This document shows positions 10 to 16,759 of a DNA stretch of 37,209 nucleotides, piece after piece. The stretch comes from Patescibacteria group bacterium. GTDB taxonomy: Bacteria; Patescibacteriota; Minisyncoccia; Phycocordibacterales; JBBUBG01. A model generated the notes under the pieces. It searched no databases and was not told the DNA's origin. It worked only from the letters and a program-made list of their open reading frames with translations. Made by a program: the position numbers and the translations under genes. Position 1 is the stretch's first letter; each line of letters starts with the position of its first letter. Location: positions 43,208 through 80,416 of the forward strand of contig JAZKIQ010000010.1 in assembly GCA_040384765.1 (NCBI GenBank), given 5' to 3'.

Positions 10-501
10 TCATACACCAAACTGTTTACCGAGAATATGGTGCGGATGTTCTCGATTGAACAGCTCCTCGCTGCGCTCGAGGAGGTACACTCGCTCGATC
101 CCCGCTTCGAGGATAGCACTCCAGCAGTCCTTGCAGGCCCACCAGTGACCCCAGAGGTAGAGGCTTGCCCCATCGGGGTCGTTTCCGCTCTCTCGTGCCG
201 CACGCAGTGCAGACGGCTCTGCGTGATAGGCAGGTGAGCAGCCTTCGCACAACTCGTACCCTTCACCCGTCTTGCAGCCAAGACGCTTGCGTTCGCACCC
301 CTTCTCCTCGTGGAATGCACTGTAGTTTGCTCCCACCCCAAGCACGGAGCCATCGCGCGATACAACCACCGCACCGGTCTTCACCAGAGGGTCAGTCGAG
401 CGCCGAGCCGCCTCCCGAGCAAGCCCCATAAAGCGATCGTCGCTTGGGACGTACAGAAACGTACGCCCTGGGGGGATGAACGGATATGGAATGGATGCCA
501 T
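10..501 (-). CDS. Zn-dependent cytidine/dCMP deaminase-family protein (163 aa)
   Basis: HAE motif, TGAVVV strand and WWACKDC in place of PCxxC, plus an extra Cys cluster (CERKRLGC...LCEGC). The start is reset to the ATG at 501 (MASIPYP) because the longer ORF overlaps thyA antisense. Confidence 0.85.
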   Translation of the reverse strand: MASIPYPFIPPGRTFLYVPSDDRFMGLAREAARRSTDPLVKTGAVVVSRDGSVLGVGANYSAFHEEKGCERKRLGCKTGEGYELCEGCSPAYHAEPSALRAARESGNDPDGASLYLWGHWWACKDCWSAILEAGIERVYLLERSEELFNREHPHHILGKQFGV

Positions 502-567
502 GTTTGTTCCTTTCGTCAATATTGCACCCAAAGGGTGCAGGACTATACTTATCGCAACCGCACCATC

Positions 568-1404
568 ATGGCACATTTTGACCTCCTCTACCAAAACCTC
601 CTGCGTGACATAGAAATGCACGGCATACAGGATGTCAACAAGCGCACCGGACACGAAACGAAGGCAATTCCGGGAGCGCAGTTCTCCATCGATCTCGAAA
701 AAGAGGGCTTCCCGCTTCTTACACTCCGCAAGATCCCTATTCAAGCGTTTATCGCAGAGCAAACCTGGTTTATCTCCGGCTCTCGCAAGCCCGCAGACCT
801 TCTGCGCGACTTCACCAAGATATGGGACGTATTCACGAACCCCGGTGACGTAGTGACCGTCGCATACGGGTATCGCTGGCGCCGCCACTTTGGGCGCGAC
901 CAGCTCAAGCTTCTCATCGATCTTTTGAAAAACGATCAGAGCTCGCGCCACGGAGTGATCGTCACCTGGGACCCAAGCTCAGATGGCCTCGGAGGTCCTG
1001 CGCGCAAAAATGTCCCCTGCCCTTTTACCTTTACCGTCAACATTATTGGCGGGCGGCTTCATCTGCACAACATTATCCGCTCGAACGATGTCATACTTGG
1101 GTTGCCGTTTGATGCAGCAGGGTTTGCATTTCTTGCACTGGTGCTCGCACAGAAGCTGGGTGTGCGCCCAGGTATCTACACACACTCGATCTCCAACGCA
1201 CACGTGTACGACAACCACTACTTCGCAATTCCTGAGCTCCTGCGCCGCCCGGCAGACCACCCAACAATCCACCTCCACCTTCCCGATAAAAGTTTTGAGC
1301 GGGCAGAGAAAAAAGATCCAGACCTTATCCGGGAAGTAGCCGCCCACCTTGAGGCGCAGTACCACCCCGGAGAACCCATCAAAGGCCTCAAGATTGCTTT
1401 GTAA
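568..1404 (+). CDS. thyA: Thymidylate synthase-family protein with Asn->Asp specificity change (possible dCMP methyltransferase)
   Basis: Motifs EQTWF, YGYRWR, SSRH, catalytic PC (Cys151), RSND..LGLPFD and HVY. Start taken at ATG 568 (MAHFD), downstream of TATACT at 544-549. Confidence 0.9.
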   Translation: MAHFDLLYQNLLRDIEMHGIQDVNKRTGHETKAIPGAQFSIDLEKEGFPLLTLRKIPIQAFIAEQTWFISGSRKPADLLRDFTKIWDVFTNPGDVVTVAYGYRWRRHFGRDQLKLLIDLLKNDQSSRHGVIVTWDPSSDGLGGPARKNVPCPFTFTVNIIGGRLHLHNIIRSNDVILGLPFDAAGFAFLALVLAQKLGVRPGIYTHSISNAHVYDNHYFAIPELLRRPADHPTIHLHLPDKSFERAEKKDPDLIREVAAHLEAQYHPGEPIKGLKIAL

Positions 1405-1424: not shown

Positions 1425-2057
1425 ATGGCCATAATCGTACGCAGCGAAATAGTGGAGAGAATAAAAAGCGGAGATATGGTGTTCAACCCACCACTCGATA
1501 TCTTCCAGCTTCAGGAGCATGCAATAGATCTGCGCATGGGATTTACCTTCATGGTTCCAAAGCGATGGCACCTTACAAAAGCCGGCCGCGAGTCGCTCGA
1601 CGCCACCCACTTCGACAAGCCAAATAGTGAATATTTCGATATCGTGGAGCTCGAGGAGGGGCAAACGTTCGACCTCCTTCCCCAGGAGTATATTCTCGTA
1701 TCGACTCTTGAATCGATCAAAGTGCCTCGCGACCTGATGGCGGTGATGTATCCACGCTCTTCGACCAACCGCAAAGGCCTCTCGGTCGACCTTACCGGCA
1801 TCATCGACTCTGGATACGAAGGCCAGCTCACCATTCCGATCCGCAACAACACTCAGTCCCAAGTGGTGAAGCTCCACCCTGGCGAGCGCCTCTGCCAGAT
1901 CGTGTTTGAAAAGCTCACGATGTCTGTCGACGCACGCAAGAGCAAATACCACCGACGCGATATTATCGACGGCGTGAAGCGTGAAAAGCGCACCGAGAGC
2001 AAGCTCATTCTTGATGGTGCCATTCGGAAGCTAAAGAGCGATCACAAGATCAAATAA
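1425..2057 (+). CDS. dcd: dCTP deaminase/trimeric dUTPase-fold protein lacking the deaminase Glu
   Basis: Motifs IDLRMG, STLESIKVP, RSS..R.GL, GIIDSGYEG and GERLCQIVF. Pro138 occupies the position of E. coli Dcd Glu138. Confidence 0.85.
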   Translation: MAIIVRSEIVERIKSGDMVFNPPLDIFQLQEHAIDLRMGFTFMVPKRWHLTKAGRESLDATHFDKPNSEYFDIVELEEGQTFDLLPQEYILVSTLESIKVPRDLMAVMYPRSSTNRKGLSVDLTGIIDSGYEGQLTIPIRNNTQSQVVKLHPGERLCQIVFEKLTMSVDARKSKYHRRDIIDGVKREKRTESKLILDGAIRKLKSDHKIK

Positions 2058-2527
2058 TGGCAGAGATTATACTTATCGCTGCCATCGGAAAAAAAACGCG
2101 CGCTATCGGACGCGAGGGAAAGTTGTTGTGGAAAATCCCCGAAGATCTCAAGCGCTTCAAGGTGCTTACGCTCGGCTACCCGATCATAATGGGGAGAAAG
2201 ACTTTTGATTCTATTGGAAAGGCACTGCCTGGCCGAAAAAATTTCGTTATTTCGCGAAATCCCGACTTCGCACATCTGGATATTGAAAAAGTGTCGAGCC
2301 TCGACGAAGCGCTGCTTCTCGCAGAAGAATCAGCCCCGGAAAAGATATTTGTGATCGGCGGAGGAGAGATATACAAGCAAGCACTCACCCGCGCAGACCG
2401 CCTTATGCTTACTCTCGTAGACTCTGACGAGGAAGGCGACACGTTCTTCCCCCCATATCCCGAGTTCTCAAACGTCGTCTCAAAGGAAGATCACGCCGGG
2501 TTTTCGTTTGTGGAGCTCACGCGTTAA
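2057..2527 (+). CDS. folA: Dihydrofolate reductase
   Basis: Motifs LLWKIPEDLKRFK, IIMGRKTFDSIG, LPGR, VIGGGEIY and GDTFFP. Translationally coupled to the upstream gene (TAATG). Confidence 0.95.
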   Translation: MAEIILIAAIGKKTRAIGREGKLLWKIPEDLKRFKVLTLGYPIIMGRKTFDSIGKALPGRKNFVISRNPDFAHLDIEKVSSLDEALLLAEESAPEKIFVIGGGEIYKQALTRADRLMLTLVDSDEEGDTFFPPYPEFSNVVSKEDHAGFSFVELTR

Positions 2528-2536
2528 TCTATCTCA

Positions 2537-3235
2537 ATGCCCTATCTCATCCTCAAAGCACGCGATACGATCGCAGAAAACACCACACAGTTCACCTTTG
2601 AGACTCCGCCCGACTTTTCTTTTAAAGCAGGTCAAGCCGTGGATCTAACACTCGAGAATATGTCGTACACCGACGACGCGGGTGCCACTCGCACCTTCTC
2701 GATCTCAAGCTCACCAAATCATAAAGGCGAGATCACCATCGCCACACGTAACTCAAGCTCTGCTTGGAAACGCACGATGTTCGAGGCACCCATGGGTCAA
2801 AAGATCTCGTACACAAACCCAACCGGACAGTTTAACCTCCCCCGCAAACCGGAGGAGCACCTTATCTTTGTCGCGGGCGGTATTGGCATAACACCGTTTA
2901 TGTCGCTCGTCCGCTACGCAACGGAAGAGAAACGTTTCGACAAGATCACGCTTATCTACTCAAATAAAAGCGAGGCGACCGCCGTATACCTTGCCGAGCT
3001 CCGTGCGCTTGCCGCAGAAAATCCCAACCTCACCCTTATCGAAAACTACGGTTCGCTCACATCTGAGATCATCACAAAAGCCGCGCAAGCTGACCCACTC
3101 CCCAAGCTCTACTATATTGCAGGTCCGATCGGCATGGTTGGGATGGCGCACAAAACGGTCCAAGAAACAGGTGTCGATGATAATGATATCCTCATTGAGG
3201 AGTTCGCCGGATACGACCCTTCCGTACTCCACTAG
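2537..3235 (+). CDS. Ferredoxin-NADP reductase-like FAD/NAD(P) oxidoreductase
   Basis: Motifs FKAGQ, RTFSISS, AGGIGITP, YIAGP (Ala for the usual Cys) and C-terminal EEF. Confidence 0.85.
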   Translation: MPYLILKARDTIAENTTQFTFETPPDFSFKAGQAVDLTLENMSYTDDAGATRTFSISSSPNHKGEITIATRNSSSAWKRTMFEAPMGQKISYTNPTGQFNLPRKPEEHLIFVAGGIGITPFMSLVRYATEEKRFDKITLIYSNKSEATAVYLAELRALAAENPNLTLIENYGSLTSEIITKAAQADPLPKLYYIAGPIGMVGMAHKTVQETGVDDNDILIEEFAGYDPSVLH

Positions 3236-3288: not shown

Positions 3289-4047
3289 ATGCAGATACTC
3301 TCAGATGCTCATCATCTTGAAACGATCGTGCGCCTCCAGGCGTGGCGATTGCTCGAGAAGGCGGAGAAGCTGAAGACGACGATGAAAAAGATTGGCGCCC
3401 AGGCGTTCGTCACTGACTGGGATGACACCGTCGCATATGGCGTCGTTGCCTGGTTTGAGAAGGCAATTGTGGATCTTGGCCAGGCTGACTACGACAAGCA
3501 TCTCGACGGCTGGGGCATGTACCAGAAGTACAAGGTGTTCAACAACGTGAAGTACTGGGACCCGGTCAGATTTGACCGCTGGGCCCAGAACACCGTCGAC
3601 CAGAACGACCTCGATCCGCACGTAGCGGCTATTCCAGGCAGTATCGAAGCTCTCTGGAAAATACCGAGCGAGACCCACCTGTGGTTCGCCGGATACCTCT
3701 CGGCACGAAGGGAACGAAACGAGGAGAGCATGCGGCGCATGCTCGAGCGTCTCGGTGCACCTCCCGGAGAGCTGTTCTTTCCGCCAAACCACGCAACGTA
3801 CGCAGACACGCACAAGATAAAGTGCGAGCTGCTCCGGTACATGTACCCCGAAGTACAGCTTCATATTGACGATCACCCGCTGATCATCAAAGAAGCTTCG
3901 GTACACTTCCCCGGACGTCTCTGCCACTTCAACGCCGACGCTGAGGGAGAGTGCCCCCAGGGCAAGATCATCAGTGCAAGCGGCCGCGAGTGGAGCTACC
4001 TCCGCAAGCGCCTGGCACACCACTACCCGCGCAAGCGCGTAGCGTAG
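3289..4047 (+). CDS. HAD-superfamily hydrolase, 5'(3')-deoxyribonucleotidase-like
   Basis: DWDDT motif I, LSAR motif II and IDD motif IV. Strong SD AAGGAGGT at 3276-3283. Confidence 0.65.
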   Translation: MQILSDAHHLETIVRLQAWRLLEKAEKLKTTMKKIGAQAFVTDWDDTVAYGVVAWFEKAIVDLGQADYDKHLDGWGMYQKYKVFNNVKYWDPVRFDRWAQNTVDQNDLDPHVAAIPGSIEALWKIPSETHLWFAGYLSARRERNEESMRRMLERLGAPPGELFFPPNHATYADTHKIKCELLRYMYPEVQLHIDDHPLIIKEASVHFPGRLCHFNADAEGECPQGKIISASGREWSYLRKRLAHHYPRKRVA

Positions 4048-5969: not shown

Positions 5970-7160
5970 TTATCTTTCCTCTGCCATCTGAGCTTTGAGT
6001 TGTTTTGAAGCCATAGTGTATCCCCCGTCAGCACCATCAATGAAGTGAACCTGTCTGCCGCGATGTTCGAACACGAGGCAGGTCATAACCGCGCGATTTG
6101 AAACATGCATGCCATAAAAAATCTTCCCTTCCCCTCGAAGCTCTTCGAGGTAGGTCGCTAAGGCTTTCCGTTTTTCCGGCGTGCCCGCGATTACCATACG
6201 CAAAAGATCATCAAACTTTTTGTAATCGCTTGAGCTTATGATGCGCCGTTTGTATTGCGGAAAGTCATAAAAAGGCTCTGAAATTCCTGAGCGCTCAAGA
6301 AGCACCGCACCCAAAAAGAGAAGTCCAAACTGCACCCTGAAAAGCCATTTGGAAAGTGTGCTTGAGTGCGAAGCAAGAACAGACGCCTCCCTCTCTACTA
6401 CCGCTGTTGAAAATGGCAATGCCAGCTTTTCAAGTGCAACGGGATGGTGCATCTCGATCGGGCCAAAGAGCGTTTCAACCTGCGCGATGATATCCCGATA
6501 CAAAGCAGCATCAGCACCTTCTTCACTTTTTGCTTTTATGATAAGGCTTATCGTTTCACCATACCGACTCTCTACGTCTCGCCAGCGGCACGAGAGCCCA
6601 TGGAGATCGGCTTCTCCTTGCACAGAGGGCATTGAAAGCGCATACCTCTTTTCAGTCTCGAGGCCTTTGACGAGCTTCTCGGCATACGACAATCCTCCGC
6701 CGCGAAACATTGCTTGATGGTACTCCTTTGATATATGGAATTTTGAAACGAGGATAGGGTGACCGGCAGCAACGATCTCTGACACTGCAATAATCCCTAC
6801 ACGAAGATCCATACCGAAACCTTCTTTCGCTTTTAGCTGCGCATCTGCAAGCGCCCGGCGAGACTCGTTCATCATGCTTGGCGGCAGCACAAAAGTGGCC
6901 CCATCTCCACCAAACACAAACGGTATATCGAGATTCCCTGCGACATGGAGAAGTGCAGCAATCGAAGAAGCTCCTACCAGGTTTACCTCTTTGTAGAGAC
7001 CGGCCTCGATCGCTTTTGTAGAACCTCGTACGTCCGTGATCACGACCCACCAGTCTTCTGGAACAGGCACATAGTTACCAGGATTAGCAACATCGCCAAA
7101 ATCCCGAAGAGACGGAAGGTCGTGATAAAAATTGCTTGTATCAATTTTTGAGTCGCTCAT
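5970..7160 (-). CDS. DUF3095-like protein (nucleotidyl cyclase-like N-terminus)
   Basis: Motifs TDVRGST, YKEVN, FVFGGDGA, LSCRW, KFDD.LRM and HFIDGADGGY. Confidence 0.75.
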   Translation of the reverse strand: MSDSKIDTSNFYHDLPSLRDFGDVANPGNYVPVPEDWWVVITDVRGSTKAIEAGLYKEVNLVGASSIAALLHVAGNLDIPFVFGGDGATFVLPPSMMNESRRALADAQLKAKEGFGMDLRVGIIAVSEIVAAGHPILVSKFHISKEYHQAMFRGGGLSYAEKLVKGLETEKRYALSMPSVQGEADLHGLSCRWRDVESRYGETISLIIKAKSEEGADAALYRDIIAQVETLFGPIEMHHPVALEKLALPFSTAVVEREASVLASHSSTLSKWLFRVQFGLLFLGAVLLERSGISEPFYDFPQYKRRIISSSDYKKFDDLLRMVIAGTPEKRKALATYLEELRGEGKIFYGMHVSNRAVMTCLVFEHRGRQVHFIDGADGGYTMASKQLKAQMAEER

Positions 7161-7183
7161 TATCAAAAAAGTATGGCATGGTC

Positions 7184-10825: not shown

Positions 10826-12262
10826 ATGGAATCGTTATACACTAACTTCGCATCTTTTCTTCGACGTATCTCGTTCGTTGTTCTTACTTCGCTCTTCCTT
10901 ATCCCAAGCTTTGCGCATGCTGCAGGCCCAGTAGACATCTGGTGGCCTACCGACGGAGCGCGCGTAAGCGGTATGCAGCCCGTTAAGGCTTTGTACTCAG
11001 GCAAAAATCTGAGCGAATACACCATGTACTGGTCCGTAGACGGCGGACAGCAAAATCTCATGCCAGATTCATACCAGGACTATCCGCACAAAGAAACGTC
11101 GATAGATGTTTCCGGCTGGCGCTGGCGCGGCAATGGACCGTACGTCATCACCCTTACCGCGAAAGATAAAAGCAACGCAGTGATTGGTGCACGCACCACA
11201 TCGATAACCATCGATCGCCCAACTACAACCACAACGGTAACGACAACCCCGGCCCCGGTACCTGCACCAACCCCTACGCCGACGACTCAGGTCACCGTTA
11301 CAAAAACAGGAGCTGCGCCCGGAGGCACAGCACCCGTCCCTACTCTCGCACCCACCGCACCAACCCTGACTCTTGCCCCCGTAAGCACGGGAGCAACGGT
11401 AAGCGACAGTGGATTGTATGTTGACTTCAACTCACCTGCAGCAAAGCAGGCTCTCACCTGGAGCACTACCCGTCCCGCAGATGCAGCGATCATGAAAAAG
11501 GTAGCGAGCACTCCAAGTGCTGCTTGGTTTGGGGGATGGAATCAAAACGTTCAAGCTGATGCGGCTGCACTCGTTGGCAAAGCAACCGCTGCAGGAAAAA
11601 CAGCTGTGCTGATTGCATACAACATCCCAGGCCGCGACTGTGGCAGCTACTCGGCTGGTGGAGCAAACGGCTCGAATGCGTACCGCACGTGGATTCGTTC
11701 GCTTGCAGCAGGTATTGGAGGAGGCAAAGCAATCGTAGTCCTCGAGCCTGACGCAACAGCAGGAATCGACTGTCTCTCAACCGAAGGGAAGGCTGCGCGC
11801 AACGCACTCCTTTCAGATGCTATTGGAGTCTTGAAAGCAAACGCCAACACAAAGGTGTATCTTGACGGAGGAAATGCACACTGGATCGCCGCGGATGTGA
11901 TGGCATCACGCCTTACGCAAGCAGGGATCGCAAAAGCTGATGGCTTCTCGCTCAACGTATCGAACTTCTTCACGACAGCGGAAAGCAATGAGTACGGGAA
12001 AAATGTCTCATCTCGTATTGGCGGCAAGTCGTTTGTTGTGGACACTTCCCGCAACGGCTCAGGCTCAAACGGACAGTGGTGCAACCCAGACGGACGCTCA
12101 CTTGGTCAAACGCCAACATTCTCGACCGGAGTGGCAGAGGCAGCAGCATACCTGTGGCTCAAGACTCCAGGAGAATCCGATGGATCATGCAACGGCAACC
12201 CTTCCGCAGGAAACTGGATGCCCGAGTATGCACTCGGACTCGCAAAGCGAGCGGGATACTAG
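10826..12262 (+). CDS. Secreted glycoside hydrolase family 6 (cellulase) with N-terminal Trp-rich module and Pro/Thr linker
   Basis: Signal peptide ending AHA. Motifs YNIPGRDC, LEPDA, YLDGG..HW, GFSLNVSNF, DTSRNG, WCNP and WLK.PGESDG. Confidence 0.92.
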   Translation: MESLYTNFASFLRRISFVVLTSLFLIPSFAHAAGPVDIWWPTDGARVSGMQPVKALYSGKNLSEYTMYWSVDGGQQNLMPDSYQDYPHKETSIDVSGWRWRGNGPYVITLTAKDKSNAVIGARTTSITIDRPTTTTTVTTTPAPVPAPTPTPTTQVTVTKTGAAPGGTAPVPTLAPTAPTLTLAPVSTGATVSDSGLYVDFNSPAAKQALTWSTTRPADAAIMKKVASTPSAAWFGGWNQNVQADAAALVGKATAAGKTAVLIAYNIPGRDCGSYSAGGANGSNAYRTWIRSLAAGIGGGKAIVVLEPDATAGIDCLSTEGKAARNALLSDAIGVLKANANTKVYLDGGNAHWIAADVMASRLTQAGIAKADGFSLNVSNFFTTAESNEYGKNVSSRIGGKSFVVDTSRNGSGSNGQWCNPDGRSLGQTPTFSTGVAEAAAYLWLKTPGESDGSCNGNPSAGNWMPEYALGLAKRAGY

Positions 12263-12274
12263 GAAGCAAGTACG

Positions 12275-12355
12275 GAAGTAGTTGCAGGACAGAAGAAGAA
12301 TCAAAGAAAACGGCATCCGAGAGGGTGCCGTTTTCTTCTGTTCTGCAACTACTTC
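12275..12355. terminator. Bidirectional terminator with extended outer stem
   Basis: AAGAAAACGGCATCC-gaga-GGGTGCCGTTTTCTT, flanked by GAAGTAGTTGCAG / CTGCAACTACTTC, between convergent genes. Confidence 0.7.
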
Positions 12356-13905
12356 TGTTCTTCTGTGCTGGTTGTAGCACCCAGCCCCTCCCTCTCGACC
12401 GGTACATCGTACCTCAAGCGGTACGCCTGCACCGTGAGCCCAGGTGAAAACTCTCCCTGATACAGCCTCGTGTAGTGATTGTCGAAGTACGATTTTAGTT
12501 CACTCTCGTACCCCTGATCGTACGAAAGTACGACCCACGCCACTTCATGGCCGACGCTAAGTGCTTTCACCTCCTTAGGCATATCTGCTTCGGAATAACC
12601 TGGAATACCTCCCTTTTTTGAACGATCCCAGTTTGGAAGCGTTGTAAGTGCCGCGGACCCTCGGTAATAATATTCGATTGGATAGATCGTAAACGGCGCA
12701 GAGATCACCACAACATCCTGAGGCTTCGCATGCGTCTCGAGAAATGAAGTAACCCCTTCGTAGTTCTCCTTCACCGGAATGGTCGCACTCACAATCTCAG
12801 CACTGAGTGCACCCATCATGAGGAGCACAATCGCTCCGCGCAAAAGCCATGAAAAGAATTTCGGGTACGATGCAGTCATCGTGATGAGCAGAAAATAGAG
12901 GGGCGGCACGGCAAGGATCAGATACCGCGTCAAATAGATCGGCTGGAAGACAAACGATGCGGCGAAAGCAGCGAGTATGGGAACAAGCACAGAAAACAGA
13001 ACATATTTGGTTTCGGAGGAAAGGACGACGCCGCGCTGAAGAGAGAGGAAGGCAAGCAACACTGCAAGAGGCCAGAGGGCAAGAATGAGCGAGTTAATAT
13101 GATCACCCTGAAAGCCAAAGAAGAATTGGGAGAAGCTGTTGAAGACATTGGCAGTCGTCGGAGTGGCAAGAAGTGGCCGCTCGGTCGCTGCGCCACCCAG
13201 CGCGGTAACCCAAGCTATCCATGGGGCAAACGACAGTGCCGCGATCACCCCAACCGCAACGAAACGCCCTACTGCACGCGCAGGAAAAATAGTTCGATGC
13301 GAGACGAAAAAGAGAATCTGAGCAAGAATAACAAGCCCGAAGAAATAGTGAGTGTACAGTCCGAGAACCGTTACGGCAGCGTACCCAAACCATAGGCCTG
13401 AACTCTCCTCATCCTTAAAAAGTCGTACAAAGAAATACTGCGAAAGTATCGAGAGAAGCGTGAAGAGGCTGTACATACGGATCTCGTTTCCGTACCAGTT
13501 GAGAAACGGTGAGATCGAGACGAGAAACGCACCGAGCACCCCCTCGCGCGGGCCATACAATGCTTTCCCGAGGAGATACATGGCTGGGAGGACCAGAAGG
13601 AAAAAGAGGAGAGAGAGAAACCGTGCCGTTGCTACGCCATTGCCAAAAATAATCTGCCAGAAGTGAAGAACCGAGTGGTAGAGCGGCACATGCACATCCT
13701 CCCCTATCACTTTGAGCATTCCCGTAAAGGTGTGGCTCGTTTGCCAAAGACTTTGCGCCTCGTCGAGCCGCAAACTCTGTTCGGAAAAAAAGAACACCGA
13801 GAGAAGGAGCACGAGGAGCGCGCACCCGGCAAGGCACCAGCCGATCCATGCCTCCCCCGCTATCGCAGCACCTTCATCTCTCATATCGATCGATCGTGTT
13901 GTCAT
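12349..13905 (-). CDS. GT-C fold (PMT/ArnT-like) polytopic glycosyltransferase
   Basis: Motifs SLRLDEAQS, DVHVPLYH, E.RMYSL, YTHY and RY; many TM helices and a soluble C-terminal domain. Confidence 0.85.
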   Translation of the reverse strand: MTTRSIDMRDEGAAIAGEAWIGWCLAGCALLVLLLSVFFFSEQSLRLDEAQSLWQTSHTFTGMLKVIGEDVHVPLYHSVLHFWQIIFGNGVATARFLSLLFFLLVLPAMYLLGKALYGPREGVLGAFLVSISPFLNWYGNEIRMYSLFTLLSILSQYFFVRLFKDEESSGLWFGYAAVTVLGLYTHYFFGLVILAQILFFVSHRTIFPARAVGRFVAVGVIAALSFAPWIAWVTALGGAATERPLLATPTTANVFNSFSQFFFGFQGDHINSLILALWPLAVLLAFLSLQRGVVLSSETKYVLFSVLVPILAAFAASFVFQPIYLTRYLILAVPPLYFLLITMTASYPKFFSWLLRGAIVLLMMGALSAEIVSATIPVKENYEGVTSFLETHAKPQDVVVISAPFTIYPIEYYYRGSAALTTLPNWDRSKKGGIPGYSEADMPKEVKALSVGHEVAWVVLSYDQGYESELKSYFDNHYTRLYQGEFSPGLTVQAYRLRYDVPVEREGLGATTSTEEQK

Positions 13906-13948
13906 GGAAGTTTCCGTACGTTGTTACGTGCGACTGTTGGAGATCTCC

Positions 13949-15481
13949 CTATCCTGCCAGCTCACGCGATGCAAACAACTCATGCACAAATCCGTACGAC
14001 TCTTTCGGAAGAGCGGCTGCTACAAATTCGAGGAAGATGACACTGTAGAGAACCGCCCACGCAAAGTTTGAAAGGATCGATGGAGAAAAACCTTCGCGCG
14101 CAATCCCTACCCCTACGCCAAAAACCACAAGAAGGATGTAGACGATATGGGGTATGACCAGGCGTACAAAGTTACCGGAGATCGCTTTTTTCGAGGTGAC
14201 TGAAAAAGCAGTTTTCTCCCCCAAAAGCGCGGCGAGAAGTGCGCGCAAGTGAATCGTAAAGCCGGCCATCGAAAATGCGAGCGAACGAAATGAGAACGAA
14301 TATCCGGAAGAGCGCTGCAGGAGATAGAGAGTGAGGAAGATGTTCGGGAGAAAGATCGCGGCAAGAAGCATCGTCGAGATCTGGAACGGAACGATTCCGA
14401 AAAAGAAGAAGAGGAGCGGTATCAGTGCATTCATGAGGACGACAGCGCCCGACAGAAAGTAGCTCACCGACGAGAGGTACTGAAGACGCTGAGCGAACGA
14501 AAGACCTGGTCGAAAGAGCAGCTTATAGCGAAAGATAAAGTCCAGAGAACCTCGAGCCCAGCGAAACTGTTGTTTGTAGTACGAAAGGAAATCTTCTGGC
14601 GCCAGCCCCTCTGCAAGCACTTCGGGAACATAGAGCGACTTCCATCCTCGACTGTGCATGAGAGCCCCCGTCAGAAAGTCTTCTGCAATACTCTCCGCGA
14701 TGCCGCCAACTTCAACCAGCGCTGATCGGCGAATAACCATGTTGGTGCCGCACATGGTGACTGAATTGAGTCTGTTTTTTCCCTTACAGATTGGACCAAA
14801 GAAGAGCGTTTGCTGCTCCCACGAACCGCGGGTGATATCGTTTACCGCATAGTTCTTGTAGTACTGAGGCGTCTGCACATATCCCATCTTTGGATCGTGG
14901 AAATACGGCACGGTTCGTGCGAGAAAATCAGCGTGTGGCACATGATCGGCATCAAAAACAACGACCAGATCTGAAGCAGTTTCACGCAGCGCATTGTTGA
15001 TATTCCCCGCCTTTGCGCCACCCGGCGTCTTGCGGGTAATGCACTCCACTCCGAGGCGCTCTGCCAAAAGCTCCATCTCATACCAATTTTCTTTTTTTGC
15101 TACGTATCCATCGTTCAAGATATAGACCGTATGCCGCGGGTACCTCATAGCAAGAGCCGCAGTCACTGTTTCCTGTACGATATCTACCGGCTCTCCGGCA
15201 ACCGTGATAAACACATCCACCTTTGGCTGATACGAGGAGTCAAAAGAAGCTTCGTACTCAGTGTCCCAGATCGTCCAGAGAAAGGTAGCGAGCTGCCAGA
15301 GATGGAATATTTCACCAGCAATCAAAAGAGAAAACAGAACGGTATTGCCGCGTGGAAACCAGAATGCTAGGACAATAAAATAAACGACTGCGGCGATACC
15401 GTTAAGCACAATGAGATACTTTGGCACTTCGGTCTCCATGAAGCTCTCCGTATCTTTTCTGGGAACAGTTTTGGCTATCAT
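13949..15481 (-). CDS. bcsA: Cellulose synthase catalytic subunit-like processive GT2 (no PilZ domain)
   Basis: Motifs LNDG, KAGNIN, FDADH, QTPQ, CGTN, AED and QQFRW, with flanking TMs. The protein ends shortly after the last TM. Confidence 0.8.
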   Translation of the reverse strand: MIAKTVPRKDTESFMETEVPKYLIVLNGIAAVVYFIVLAFWFPRGNTVLFSLLIAGEIFHLWQLATFLWTIWDTEYEASFDSSYQPKVDVFITVAGEPVDIVQETVTAALAMRYPRHTVYILNDGYVAKKENWYEMELLAERLGVECITRKTPGGAKAGNINNALRETASDLVVVFDADHVPHADFLARTVPYFHDPKMGYVQTPQYYKNYAVNDITRGSWEQQTLFFGPICKGKNRLNSVTMCGTNMVIRRSALVEVGGIAESIAEDFLTGALMHSRGWKSLYVPEVLAEGLAPEDFLSYYKQQFRWARGSLDFIFRYKLLFRPGLSFAQRLQYLSSVSYFLSGAVVLMNALIPLLFFFFGIVPFQISTMLLAAIFLPNIFLTLYLLQRSSGYSFSFRSLAFSMAGFTIHLRALLAALLGEKTAFSVTSKKAISGNFVRLVIPHIVYILLVVFGVGVGIAREGFSPSILSNFAWAVLYSVIFLEFVAAALPKESYGFVHELFASRELAG

Positions 15482-15520
15482 GTCGTTTATCTACTAGCGA
15501 ATAAATCTCTTACCTTTTTG

Positions 15521-16759
15521 TCATCGGACCACAAGAGTACTTCTTGTTTTCTCAAGGAGAGATGCCTGATCCGTGGAGAGCTTGGGCAGCTCATTCCAGT
15601 AGAAAGCCATCCCAAACCAAGCCCAGTTGTCGTCGTAGTATGACAACTTATCCTTCCAGATCCGCTCATCGGGATCGTACAGAATCTGGAGCTTCAGCCG
15701 ATACATTTTTTCAGCAGCGTCTGGCGCCACCAAAAGAAAGTAGGGCAAGGTCGCGCCGTACACTGCTGGAGACTCATGAGTATCCACACTCTTTCCGTCG
15801 TGTCCGTAAATAGAGGCAATCTTTCCATTCTGTTCCCACTCCTCACGAAGGAAGGAGAGCTTTGTGAGCAACGCCTTTGCACGGAGCTCTCCATTCCAGC
15901 GATAATCGAGGGCAATGCGCCATGGGACTCGCATAGCATCAAAGCCAAAGTTTGTAGACAGACCTGTACCATCCGGAGCACCCAGAGCGCCCGAGGTGCG
16001 ATTAAGCTCTACCCAATCCGGCGGAAGAAGGGCTGACCTCTTTTTATCGAGGGGAAGTTCAAGCGATCTCGACAGAACCTCGTATGAGGTGTCCACGAGA
16101 CCCTTCCAGTTGTGCTCAAGATCTACCCGTGCAAACTCTCGATATGCATATGGGGCAAAATAGGAAGGGTTTACGACAATCCTCGAGAGAGACTCCTTTT
16201 CAACATTGTTCGATGCGAGATATGGACGACCCCCAATGAGCACCACCTCCTCTCTCCAGATATCCCGTATGATCGCCTTCGCTGAAGAGAGATACGCATC
16301 TCCGTGCCAGCGGTTGTGCGCAAACAAAAGCGCGAGTGCGATATCGATATCAGCATCGCTTGCTGTATGTTCCCCTCCCTTCGCAATGAGCGGGCCGTAC
16401 GAACCGTCTGCACGCTTTCCAAATAGCCAGGAAAAGAGTGCGTCATCGGTATGTCCAAGATTGTCTTTAGTCCACTTCCACGAGCGGTCAAACGTTTCCT
16501 TGTCATCCATCCATACCGCACGAAGCATCGTATAGCTTTGCCCTTCGGAAGTAGTAACGTTGTCTCTGCTTTTATCAAGAGTCCGTCCCGTGCCGGGCTC
16601 AAGATACTCAGCTTTATACGAACTCCACAGCGAGTGGAGCATGTCGTGCGGAGAAAAAACTACTGGTATATGCCTCACCGTGCTGTTGTAGTAAATAACT
16701 CCGAAAACAATACCAAGCGCTGATACAAGGAAAAAAATGCCGAGAAGAGTATTACGCAT
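15521..16759 (-). CDS. Membrane-anchored glycoside hydrolase family 8 (BcsZ-like)
   Basis: Motifs TTSEGQSY, ASDADIDIA, NPSYF, FDAMR and YYD; N-terminal TM. Confidence 0.9.
   Translation of the reverse strand: MRNTLLGIFFLVSALGIVFGVIYYNSTVRHIPVVFSPHDMLHSLWSSYKAEYLEPGTGRTLDKSRDNVTTSEGQSYTMLRAVWMDDKETFDRSWKWTKDNLGHTDDALFSWLFGKRADGSYGPLIAKGGEHTASDADIDIALALLFAHNRWHGDAYLSSAKAIIRDIWREEVVLIGGRPYLASNNVEKESLSRIVVNPSYFAPYAYREFARVDLEHNWKGLVDTSYEVLSRSLELPLDKKRSALLPPDWVELNRTSGALGAPDGTGLSTNFGFDAMRVPWRIALDYRWNGELRAKALLTKLSFLREEWEQNGKIASIYGHDGKSVDTHESPAVYGATLPYFLLVAPDAAEKMYRLKLQILYDPDERIWKDKLSYYDDNWAWFGMAFYWNELPKLSTDQASLLEKTRSTLVVR

Follow-up and report, generated by a model that had tools for sequence, protein, structure and literature searches.

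Must a bacterium pass through deoxyuridine monophosphate (dUMP) to make thymidylate (dTMP)? In the textbook account, cells make thymidylate from dUMP by ThyA or ThyX. The question is raised by a locus in a genome of the Patescibacteria (Candidate Phyla Radiation, CPR), which lies at the beginning of a stretch of 37,209 nucleotides (contig JAZKIQ010000010.1, positions 43,208 to 80,416) that was analysed as a whole and is called the window here. The locus contains a gene of the thymidylate synthase (TS) family, named ThyA-D here, which encodes Asp where the canonical enzyme has Asn, and which stands between the genes of a dCMP-deaminase-family protein and a dCTP-deaminase-like (DCD-like) protein (Table 1). 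As judged from homology, we lean to the answer that ThyA-D is a C5-methyltransferase of deoxycytidine monophosphate (dCMP), and that together with the neighbouring deaminase it would form a dUMP-free route from dCTP to dCMP, 5-methyl-dCMP and dTMP.

Table 1. Features of the ThyA-D locus, in positions of the window
Feature	Position	Strand	Remarks
ThyA-family gene (ThyA-D)	568..1404	+	278 aa; PF00303 173.7 bits (cut-off 24.3, Pfam profile search); proposed dCMP C5-methyltransferase
Codons of catalytic Cys151 and of Pro152 (TGC 1018-1020, CCT 1021-1023)	1018..1023	+	Pro152 is at the position of E. coli His147
Asp182 codon GAT	1111..1113	+	position of E. coli Asn177 and T4 gp42 Asp179
dCMP-deaminase-family gene	10..501	-	PF00383 49.3 bits; start taken as ATG 499-501, uncertain, frame open upstream
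Divergent intergenic region, 66 bp	502..567	.	presumed shared promoter region; from gene coordinates
dCTP-deaminase-like (dUTPase-fold) gene	1425..2057	+	210 aa; PF22769 115.4 bits; TIGR02274 111.4 bits
Pro138 codon of the DCD-like gene	1836-1838	+	position of the T-L-E motif Glu of dCTP deaminases
Dihydrofolate reductase (DHFR) gene	2057..2527	+	PF00186 160.3 bits; start overlaps the stop of the DCD-like gene

The codons of Cys151, Pro152 and Asp182 are all inside RSNDVILGLPFD, and the spacing from Cys to Asp is 31 residues. In a MAFFT alignment with E. coli ThyA and phage T4 gp42, with the numbering checked, C151 corresponds to C146 of E. coli and C148 of T4, D182 to N177 of E. coli and D179 of T4, and P152 to H147 of E. 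coli. Pairwise BLASTP against the TS of phage Xp12, E. coli ThyA and T4 gp42 gave the same placement, and HMMER alignments with five solved thymidylate synthases put 'lglpfdaagfafl' of ThyA-D over 'lgvpfniasyall'. The AlphaFold2 model of ThyA-D had a predicted local distance difference test value (pLDDT) of 92.5, and its top Foldseek matches were all TS, E. coli TS included, with template modelling (TM) scores of about 0.8. The placement of Asp182 is thus based on three kinds of sequence alignment and a confident predicted fold. The sequence-only reading had named these residues, their spacing, the change of PCH to PCP and the equivalence to the Cys/Asn pair of E. coli and the Cys/Asp pair of T4, and all of this was borne out by the codons and alignments.

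Apart from these changes, the catalytic set is that of a thymidylate synthase. With canonical ThyA (E. coli, L. casei; EC 2.1.1.45) ThyA-D has in common the fold, DHFR linkage and, in the alignment with the E. coli protein, the catalytic Cys151, Glu64 (Glu58 in E. coli), Tyr100 (Tyr94), the phosphate-binding set of Arg26, Arg127 and Arg171 (Arg21/126/166) and Ser172 (Ser167), Asp174 (Asp169), His212 (His207) and Tyr214 (Tyr209). The C-terminal tail is also retained, ending in IKGLKIAL compared with IKAPVAI in E. coli, while gp42 ends before this tail. The changes from E. coli ThyA to ThyA-D are Asn177 to Asp, His147 to Pro, Gln165 to Ile, Trp83 to Phe and Arg127 to His; the last position has His or Gln in CPR relatives.

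These two positions have been connected with cytosine before. Yang et al. 2021 (PMC8670742) report, in the accessible text, that no positions discriminate better than 177 and 147 between TS of cytosine-modified and TS of unmodified contigs from phage metaviromes, and they cite Asn-to-Asp TS mutants that make 5-methyl-dCMP. The accessible text of a paper on the CMP hydroxymethylase MilA (PMC5175136) likewise describes an Asp as the mark of cytosine-using enzymes. The marks of canonical ThyA, Asn at E. coli position 177, which recognises O4 and N3-H of uracil, and His at 147, are both absent in ThyA-D, whereas the mark of phage-type dCMP methyltransferases, Asp at 177 with a residue other than His at 147, is present. 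Because of Asp182 and Pro152 the substrate of ThyA-D would be a cytosine nucleotide. The same MilA paper reports, in the part available, that deoxy-substrate enzymes retain Ser and Arg at the positions of Ala and Lys in MilA. Unlike MilA/BcmA-type CMP hydroxymethylases with Ala/Lys in the ribose pocket, ThyA-D retains Ser172 and Arg127 (the Ser167/Arg126' positions), and for this reason deoxyribose would be preferred over ribose.

A different answer to our question is that ThyA-D is an ordinary TS on dUMP, in which Asp and Pro are tolerated lineage-specific substitutions, and that the deaminase and a DCD-derived dUTPase supply the dUMP. We consider this unlikely. ThyA-D passes the NCBIfam TS equivalog model TIGR03284 (121.7 against a cut-off of 108.35), which speaks for a dUMP enzyme and against our preferred one, and the remaining catalytic residues and the C-terminal tail are TS-like, as described above. 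With seven other NCBIfam TS equivalog models, however, it is far under the cut-offs (for example, NF002497, 140.8 against 327), and the Asn-to-Asp change is reported to switch TS to dCMP (cited in the accessible text of PMC8670742).

If Asp and Pro were tolerated substitutions, their conservation should be considered. A protein search over 5.8 billion proteins gave 2112 relatives, and 120 listed homologues had 67-96% identity; those of them named by source were from Parcubacteria, Paceibacterota and similar Patescibacteria, and were called 'thymidylate synthase'. Together with the query, 121/121 sequences had Asp at the D182 position, in the motif RSxD..LG.P.D..GF, and 116/121 had Pro after the catalytic Cys. 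In the GTDB species-representative genomes at least 255 stretches encode a ThyA-D relative, and the best 80 of the 255 loci were analysed; with the query added, Cys151 and Asp182 were present in 81/81 rows and Pro152 in 79/81. In a wider set of 153 rows (150 best representatives at 50% clustering, the query and two phage proteins) there were 128 Asp, 19 Asn and 6 gaps. The sequence-only reading had asked whether the GAT codon could be an assembly error; it is not, because the Asp is common to close homologues.

The phylum sample consisted of 401 Patescibacteria genomes, among which 184 had a ThyA-family match (the tally includes the unpublished genome G150). The Asp type was found in 17/401 genomes from at least 11 family-level groups, with 46-100% identity and at least 264 bits, compared with 125 bits for the next matches. 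Asp was present in 16/16 ThyA-D clade members found in this sample, and canonical CPR ThyA had Asn and His at E. coli positions 177 and 147 in 13/13 loci examined. An Asp that is strictly invariant in a deep clade, down to about 45% identity, beside canonical CPR enzymes that keep Asn and His, argues against the dUMP alternative. The Asp type was absent from all nine sampled genomes of the same order (0/9), which suggests that the ThyA-D cluster moves horizontally.

Two phylogenetic trees were inferred, with rows picked by similarity to the query, and this biased sampling is a point against our interpretation of them. In the FastTree of 159 rows, 126 Asp rows made one clade (support 92), containing groups of CPR type (36 rows, support 90) and phage type (88 rows, support 98), and canonical CPR ThyA with Asn and His grouped with E. 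coli ThyA. A quick IQ-TREE search (LG+C20, 68 rows) gave one clade of 44 rows, all Asp, with a Shimodaira-Hasegawa-like approximate likelihood ratio test (SH-aLRT) value of 100 and a branch of 1.04; two Asp rows were elsewhere. This clade splits into a phage-type group (14 rows, 94) and a CPR-type group (30 rows, 84). ThyA-D is in the CPR-type group, sister to the phage-type group and not nested among Xp12-like sequences. The long branch parts the clade from the Asn enzymes, canonical CPR ThyA included, and adjoins phage dCMP methylases, which also argues against an ordinary TS. With the changes at positions 177 and 147 and an all-Asp clade beside the phage group of Xp12 and PaMx74, homology supports the proposal of the sequence-only reading that ThyA-D is a dCMP-type enzyme, and the tree for which that reading had called placed it apart from canonical ThyA.

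Xanthomonas phage Mallos and Janthinobacterium phage Donnerlittchen have their TS homologues in the phage-type group; that of Mallos shares 63.7% identity with Xp12 TS and 64.4% with PaMx74 TS. Xp12 TS was the best-scoring characterised relative of ThyA-D (163 bits, 34% identity), followed by E. coli ThyA (104 bits, 31%) and T4 gp42 (44.7 bits, 23%); ThyA-D shares with the Xp12 and PaMx74 enzymes Asp177 and Pro147, in the motifs PCP and LP(Y/F)D. Function of such phage enzymes is described in the accessible text of a preprint (10.1101/2024.12.05.627091). There, a deaminase-family gene was at most 3 kb from the TS in 104/149 modified but 17/277 unmodified phage contigs, those phage TS homologues carried Asp177, and 5-methyl-deoxycytidine was made by 5/7 tested linked TS homologues and by Xp12 TS. 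A linked deaminase, mSCD-B5, acts on 5-methyl-dCTP, which it converts to dTTP, and not on monophosphates. The proposed chemistry of ThyA-D is the same as that described for Xp12 in the same available text, namely methylation of dCMP to 5-methyl-dCMP and a deamination that supplies the thymidine pool.

Asp-type metagenomic representatives also contained fusions. In one the deaminase is N-terminal to ThyA-D (P0141), and in another a MazG-like PRA-PH pyrophosphohydrolase is joined with ThyA-D (P0176); we infer that these two may tie the activities of deaminase, pyrophosphohydrolase and ThyA-D together. A third fusion joins an HNH_3 endonuclease domain with an Asp-type ThyA homologue (P0181). In IMG/VR, seven contigs (L123-L129) had CPR-type ThyA-D at 47-57% identity, and on those scanned with PHROGs the ORFs nearby matched phage proteins for replication and lysis, among them primase, helicase, polynucleotide kinase, RNA ligase, exonuclease and endolysin. 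Of the seven contigs, 6/7 also had a dUTPase-fold gene, mostly classical, and 3/7 a deaminase. They may come from CPR-infecting phages with modified cytosine. The CPR-type group is therefore found in bacterial chromosomes and phages alike.

What the enzyme must deliver can be seen from the rest of the host genome, which comprises 12 contigs with 822,710 bases in total, at 99.83% completeness. ThyA-D is its single PF00303 match, and profile searches of this genome found no ThyX and no thymidine kinase, and no deoxynucleoside kinase match above the cut-off. As the sole TS-family gene, with no ThyX or thymidine kinase found, ThyA-D must take part in the dTMP route; this holds for a dUMP enzyme as well and is counted in favour of that alternative. 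The genome has one thymidylate kinase (Tmk), one PF00383 deaminase and one dUTPase-fold gene, and the last two are the neighbours of ThyA-D. A uracil-DNA glycosylase was also found. Of the related genomes with ThyA-D, 15/16 had no ThyX.

The host genome had no match to ribonucleotide reductase (RNR; PF02867, PF13597) or to cytidylate kinase (PF02224). A connection of ThyA-D with loss of RNR or a life on salvaged deoxynucleoside monophosphates (dNMPs) was considered and ruled out, since 15/16 related ThyA-D genomes have RNR; its absence is peculiar to this host genome. As a guess, the deoxynucleotides of the host come from uptake of dNMPs or DNA.

Genes around ThyA-D form a conserved cluster. 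Serine hydroxymethyltransferase (SHMT) and Tmk lie just beyond the window on the same strand as the deaminase gene, and the commonest order was SHMT, Tmk and deaminase on one strand, diverging from ThyA-D, DCD-like and DHFR on the other. Among the 80 loci, many of them cut by contig ends, the neighbours were deaminase in 77, DCD-like in 75, DHFR in 58, SHMT in 56 and Tmk in 53. DHFR, SHMT and Tmk are classical thymidylate-cycle genes, as the dUMP alternative would expect. The deaminase, in contrast, was within 1.5 kb on either side of 8/16 ThyA-D genes but 0/13 canonical CPR ThyA genes, and this lack of linkage at canonical loci argues against that alternative. In whole genomes, the deaminase type (E<=1e-10) was found in 13/17 ThyA-D genomes but 4/384 others, and the DCD-like type described below (E<=1e-25) in 14/17 but 1/384 others. 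Related genomes are not independent samples, and these co-occurrence counts are a pattern given with no statistical test, which lowers their weight for our reading.

The deaminase gene is proposed, from its homology and neighbourhood, to encode a 5-methyl-dCMP (or dCMP) deaminase. Among solved structures, human dCMP deaminase (2w4l) is its best relative, and the zinc and catalytic motifs H(A/S)E and C..CW are kept at 90% or more across 80 rows. Most members of the family have HSE, not HAE. The family also has an unusual conserved motif GHWW(A/C)CxxCW in place of the usual PCxxC, and a conserved Cys-rich insert (C.R ... C.GC) directly before H(A/S)E. The gene is the sole PF00383 match in the host genome, hence no separate tRNA adenosine deaminase (TadA) was detected there. 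In the closest sampled relative (G355), the deaminase gene is followed immediately downstream, on contig G355:C1 (L121 6182-8542, +), by a 786-aa open frame in which a fusion joins one thymidylate-kinase domain and two ThyX (PF02511) domains; another Tmk, of the ordinary kind, is at L121 2966-3580.

The DCD-like partner has also changed in a residue of interest. In alignments to solved DCDs its 'ltipirn' stands over 'itlelfn' or 'itlelsn', so that Pro138 is at the place of the Glu of the T-L-E motif, which we take to be the catalytic residue of dCTP deaminases. The 80 loci contained 85 open reading frames (ORFs) of DCD/dUTPase-like type, comprising 72 complete operonic copies, 3 truncated copies and 10 classical short Dut-like genes (GVIDSGYRGE...) on the other strand of the cluster. 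Pro was at the Glu position in 72/72 complete operonic copies and Glu in none, while DCDs beside canonical CPR ThyA retain the Glu (L027, L036, L037). The protein has in common with bifunctional dCTP deaminase-dUTPases and archaeal DCD-type dUTPases the DCD/dUTPase fold and the motifs PRSS...R and IIDxGY; with the archaeal dUTPase model NF002598 it scored only 45 bits against a cut-off of 130. It also differs from these enzymes in Pro for the T-L-E Glu and in its specific co-occurrence with ThyA-D.

We propose from these features that the DCD-like protein is a (d)NTP pyrophosphatase (dCTP to dCMP, and/or dUTP or 5-methyl-dCTP) and not a deaminase. Since ten loci also have a classical Dut-like gene in the same cluster, it is probably not merely a dUTPase; in about 10/80 loci a second dUTPase would be redundant, which is a further argument against the dUMP alternative. 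That alternative can point to the existence of DCD-like dUTPases in archaeal viruses, which are the best phage matches of the protein. The loss of Glu fits a pathway that bypasses dUTP and dUMP, and by analogy suggests that the protein fills the niche of MazG-like or haloacid dehalogenase (HAD) hydrolases in phage modules. No homology to the T4 dCTPase gp56 was found. A chain deposited in the PDB as 'dCTP deaminase' (9ln0_A, with 9ln3; 156 aa) is also without the T-L-E Glu (LTLMLYN in the HMMER alignment), and a related chain of 155 aa (8y1w_A) was also among the matches; no papers on 9LN0, 9LN3 or 8Y1W were found in the open-access literature.

Taken together, the pathway that we favour would proceed as follows. 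The Glu-less DCD-like protein would hydrolyse dCTP to dCMP, and it may also clear dUTP or 5-methyl-dCTP. In ThyA-D, Cys151 would add to C6 of dCMP while Asp182 would hydrogen-bond or protonate N3 and N4 of the cytosine. The neighbouring SHMT would make methylene-tetrahydrofolate, from which ThyA-D would transfer the methylene and then the folate hydride, giving 5-methyl-dCMP and dihydrofolate, and DHFR would recycle the dihydrofolate. The dCMP-deaminase-family enzyme would convert 5-methyl-dCMP to dTMP, although a mono- or a triphosphate could be the substrate of deamination, and Tmk would phosphorylate dTMP. Methylation before deamination would be the reverse of the textbook order with no dUMP intermediate, that is, the phage Xp12 route as a housekeeping pathway. 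Given that ThyA-D is the sole TS-family member and that the cluster includes Tmk, the product of ThyA-D has to end up as dTMP, most obviously through the conserved deaminase. A role in thymidylate supply via 5-methyl-dCMP is therefore likelier than one in DNA modification.

The enzyme could also be a dCMP hydroxymethylase of the T4 gp42 type, making 5-hydroxymethyl-dCMP for DNA or for deamination to 5-hydroxymethyl-dUMP. Asp182 and Cys151 correspond to Asp179 and Cys148 of gp42 at the same 31-residue spacing, Glu60 of gp42 is shared as well, and linked deaminases also act on 5-hydroxymethylcytosine (5hmC) nucleotides, according to the available text of 10.1101/2024.12.05.627091. Yet ThyA-D is much closer to Xp12 TS than to gp42 (34%, 163 bits, against 23%, 44.7 bits), and gp42 has Thr after the catalytic Cys. 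In the accessible text of PMC5175136, the TS tail closes on folate and is missing in T4 dCMP hydroxymethylase, and hydroxymethylases release tetrahydrofolate and need no DHFR; ThyA-D keeps the tail, and DHFR is linked in 58/80 loci. Moreover, neither a glucosyltransferase nor any other gene for decorating 5hmC was seen in the window, and the cell would be left with no visible source of dTMP. We regard this explanation as highly improbable. The sequence-only reading had named a methyl- or hydroxymethyltransferase; with the tail kept and DHFR and SHMT linked, methylation is favoured over hydroxymethylation, as far as homology tells.

Methylation of dCMP could in addition serve DNA itself. ThyA-D would then supply 5-methyl-dCMP for DNA as in Xp12, the DCD-like protein would remove dCTP, the deaminase would divert a part to thymidine nucleotides, and a Tmk-like kinase with nucleoside diphosphate kinase would raise 5-methyl-dCMP to the triphosphate, so that 5-methylcytosine (5mC) replaces much or all C. 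Every part of the Xp12 module has its equivalent in the cluster, which also includes a kinase, the same logic is described for 5mC phages in the accessible text of 10.1101/2024.12.05.627091, and the phage contigs above carry CPR-type clade members at 47-57% identity. The host genome has no match to a C5 DNA methyltransferase (PF00145), and therefore any 5mC would arise before replication. Against this, no sign of DNA modification was seen in the sequence. The composition of the window (51.7% GC, CpG observed/expected 1.10, TpG and CpA about 0.96-0.97) has no trace of raised 5mC deamination, which is a weak test. The cluster kinase is an ordinary Tmk by Pfam, and no dedicated 5-methyl-dCMP kinase or polymerase adaptation was identified. 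We know of no cellular organism with wholesale replacement of a base. The explanation as a whole appears improbable to us, and its full consequence, that dCTP is destroyed, 5-methyl-dCTP is built into the chromosome, much or all genomic cytosine is 5mC and the deaminase draws thymidine nucleotides from it, very improbable.

Several further observations weigh against dCMP methylation as the route to thymidylate. Every gene of the cluster also has a canonical reading, and the cluster as such is compatible with the textbook order. The deaminase type at E<=1e-10 is lacking in 4/17 ThyA-D genomes and the DCD-like type in 3/17, and genome G367 has the deaminase (48% identity) in the absence of any ThyA match. 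Orthology of the deaminase with phage ThyA-linked deaminases was ruled out, as identity is 29-32%, with an extra Cys-rich insert and different motifs; its best phage matches were ordinary phage dCMP deaminases (33-37% identity, weak E-values). The best matches of the DCD-like protein in the phage database were DCD-type dUTPases of archaea and archaeal viruses. The fusion in G355 is the sole ThyX among the 16 ThyA-D relatives and stands beside the cluster, and dUMP could be available and used there. In the accessible text of 10.1101/2024.12.05.627091 the 5mC selectivity of deaminases is polyphyletic, because of which this selectivity is not readable from sequence.

The route that we favour and the Xp12 system can be compared directly. 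The neighbourhood of TS, deaminase and DHFR is common to ThyA-D loci, Xp12, Mallos and Donnerlittchen, and in the Xp12 module hydrolase, TS, dCMP deaminase and DHFR are consecutive. Unlike this phage takeover module, ThyA-D is chromosomal, housekeeping and the sole TS-family gene of the bacterium. The CPR deaminase is non-orthologous, with its Cys-rich insert and GHWW(A/C)CxxCW motif, the pyrophosphatase niche would be held by a Glu-less DCD-like protein instead of a HAD or MazG-like hydrolase, and SHMT and Tmk are additional in the CPR cluster.

Elsewhere in the window there are genes for ribosomal protein L11, NusG, glycosyltransferases, glycoside hydrolases, a sortase and pilus assembly proteins. 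The window had no visible phage genes, and the cluster is syntenic in 80 CPR genomes, which agrees with the view of the sequence-only reading that ThyA-D is a chromosomal, non-phage gene. After DHFR on the same strand there are an FNR-like FAD/NAD(P)-binding oxidoreductase gene (2537-3235, +) and a gene (3289-4047, +) for a 252-aa protein with no Pfam or NCBIfam match, which contains 'FVTDWDDTV', presumably resembling HAD motif I. Both were considered as parts of the cluster and rejected, since the 80 syntenic loci gave no match to either at E<=1e-6. A full-length DUF3095 protein (5970-7166, -; 430.5 bits) is near the SecE, NusG and L11 genes. Polysaccharide genes are grouped at 10826-16759, with a GH6 hydrolase, a PMT_2 glycosyltransferase, a GT2 protein with a cellulose-synthase-like region and a GH8 hydrolase.

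Phages already offer precedents for both the chemistry and the gene trio. The apparent novelty is that a bacterial lineage would have them as its only, chromosomal route to thymidylate, together with the Glu-less DCD-like partner. In open-access PubMed Central and bioRxiv (main texts), no paper was found that describes, for Patescibacteria or any other cell, an Asp-type ThyA or a route by 5-methyl-dCMP, and two papers on CPR bacteria that mention thyA treat it, in their accessible parts, as an ordinary thymidylate synthase. The preprint 10.1101/2024.12.05.627091 covers phages only, and the word 'Patescibacteria' does not occur in its available text.

If the favoured route is true, widespread ultra-small bacteria, with at least 255 matches in species-representative genomes, would have a third, dUMP-free order of thymidylate synthesis, in which dCMP is methylated and then deaminated. 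So far the methylate-then-deaminate route has been described only as a phage device for 5mC DNA. The presence of the same clade on phage contigs would, in that case, indicate that genes pass between phages and CPR chromosomes. 'Thymidylate synthase' and 'dCTP deaminase' would then be systematically mis-annotated in hundreds of genomes, and the deaminases of these clusters would be a new cellular pool of candidate 5mC-selective enzymes, which are in demand for methylome sequencing. Should the 5mC-DNA explanation be true instead, this would be the first cellular organism with a canonical DNA base replaced wholesale. For CPR bacteria in general, the dUMP-free route would change the models of uracil avoidance, of sensitivity to antifolates and fluoropyrimidines, and of nucleotide salvage.

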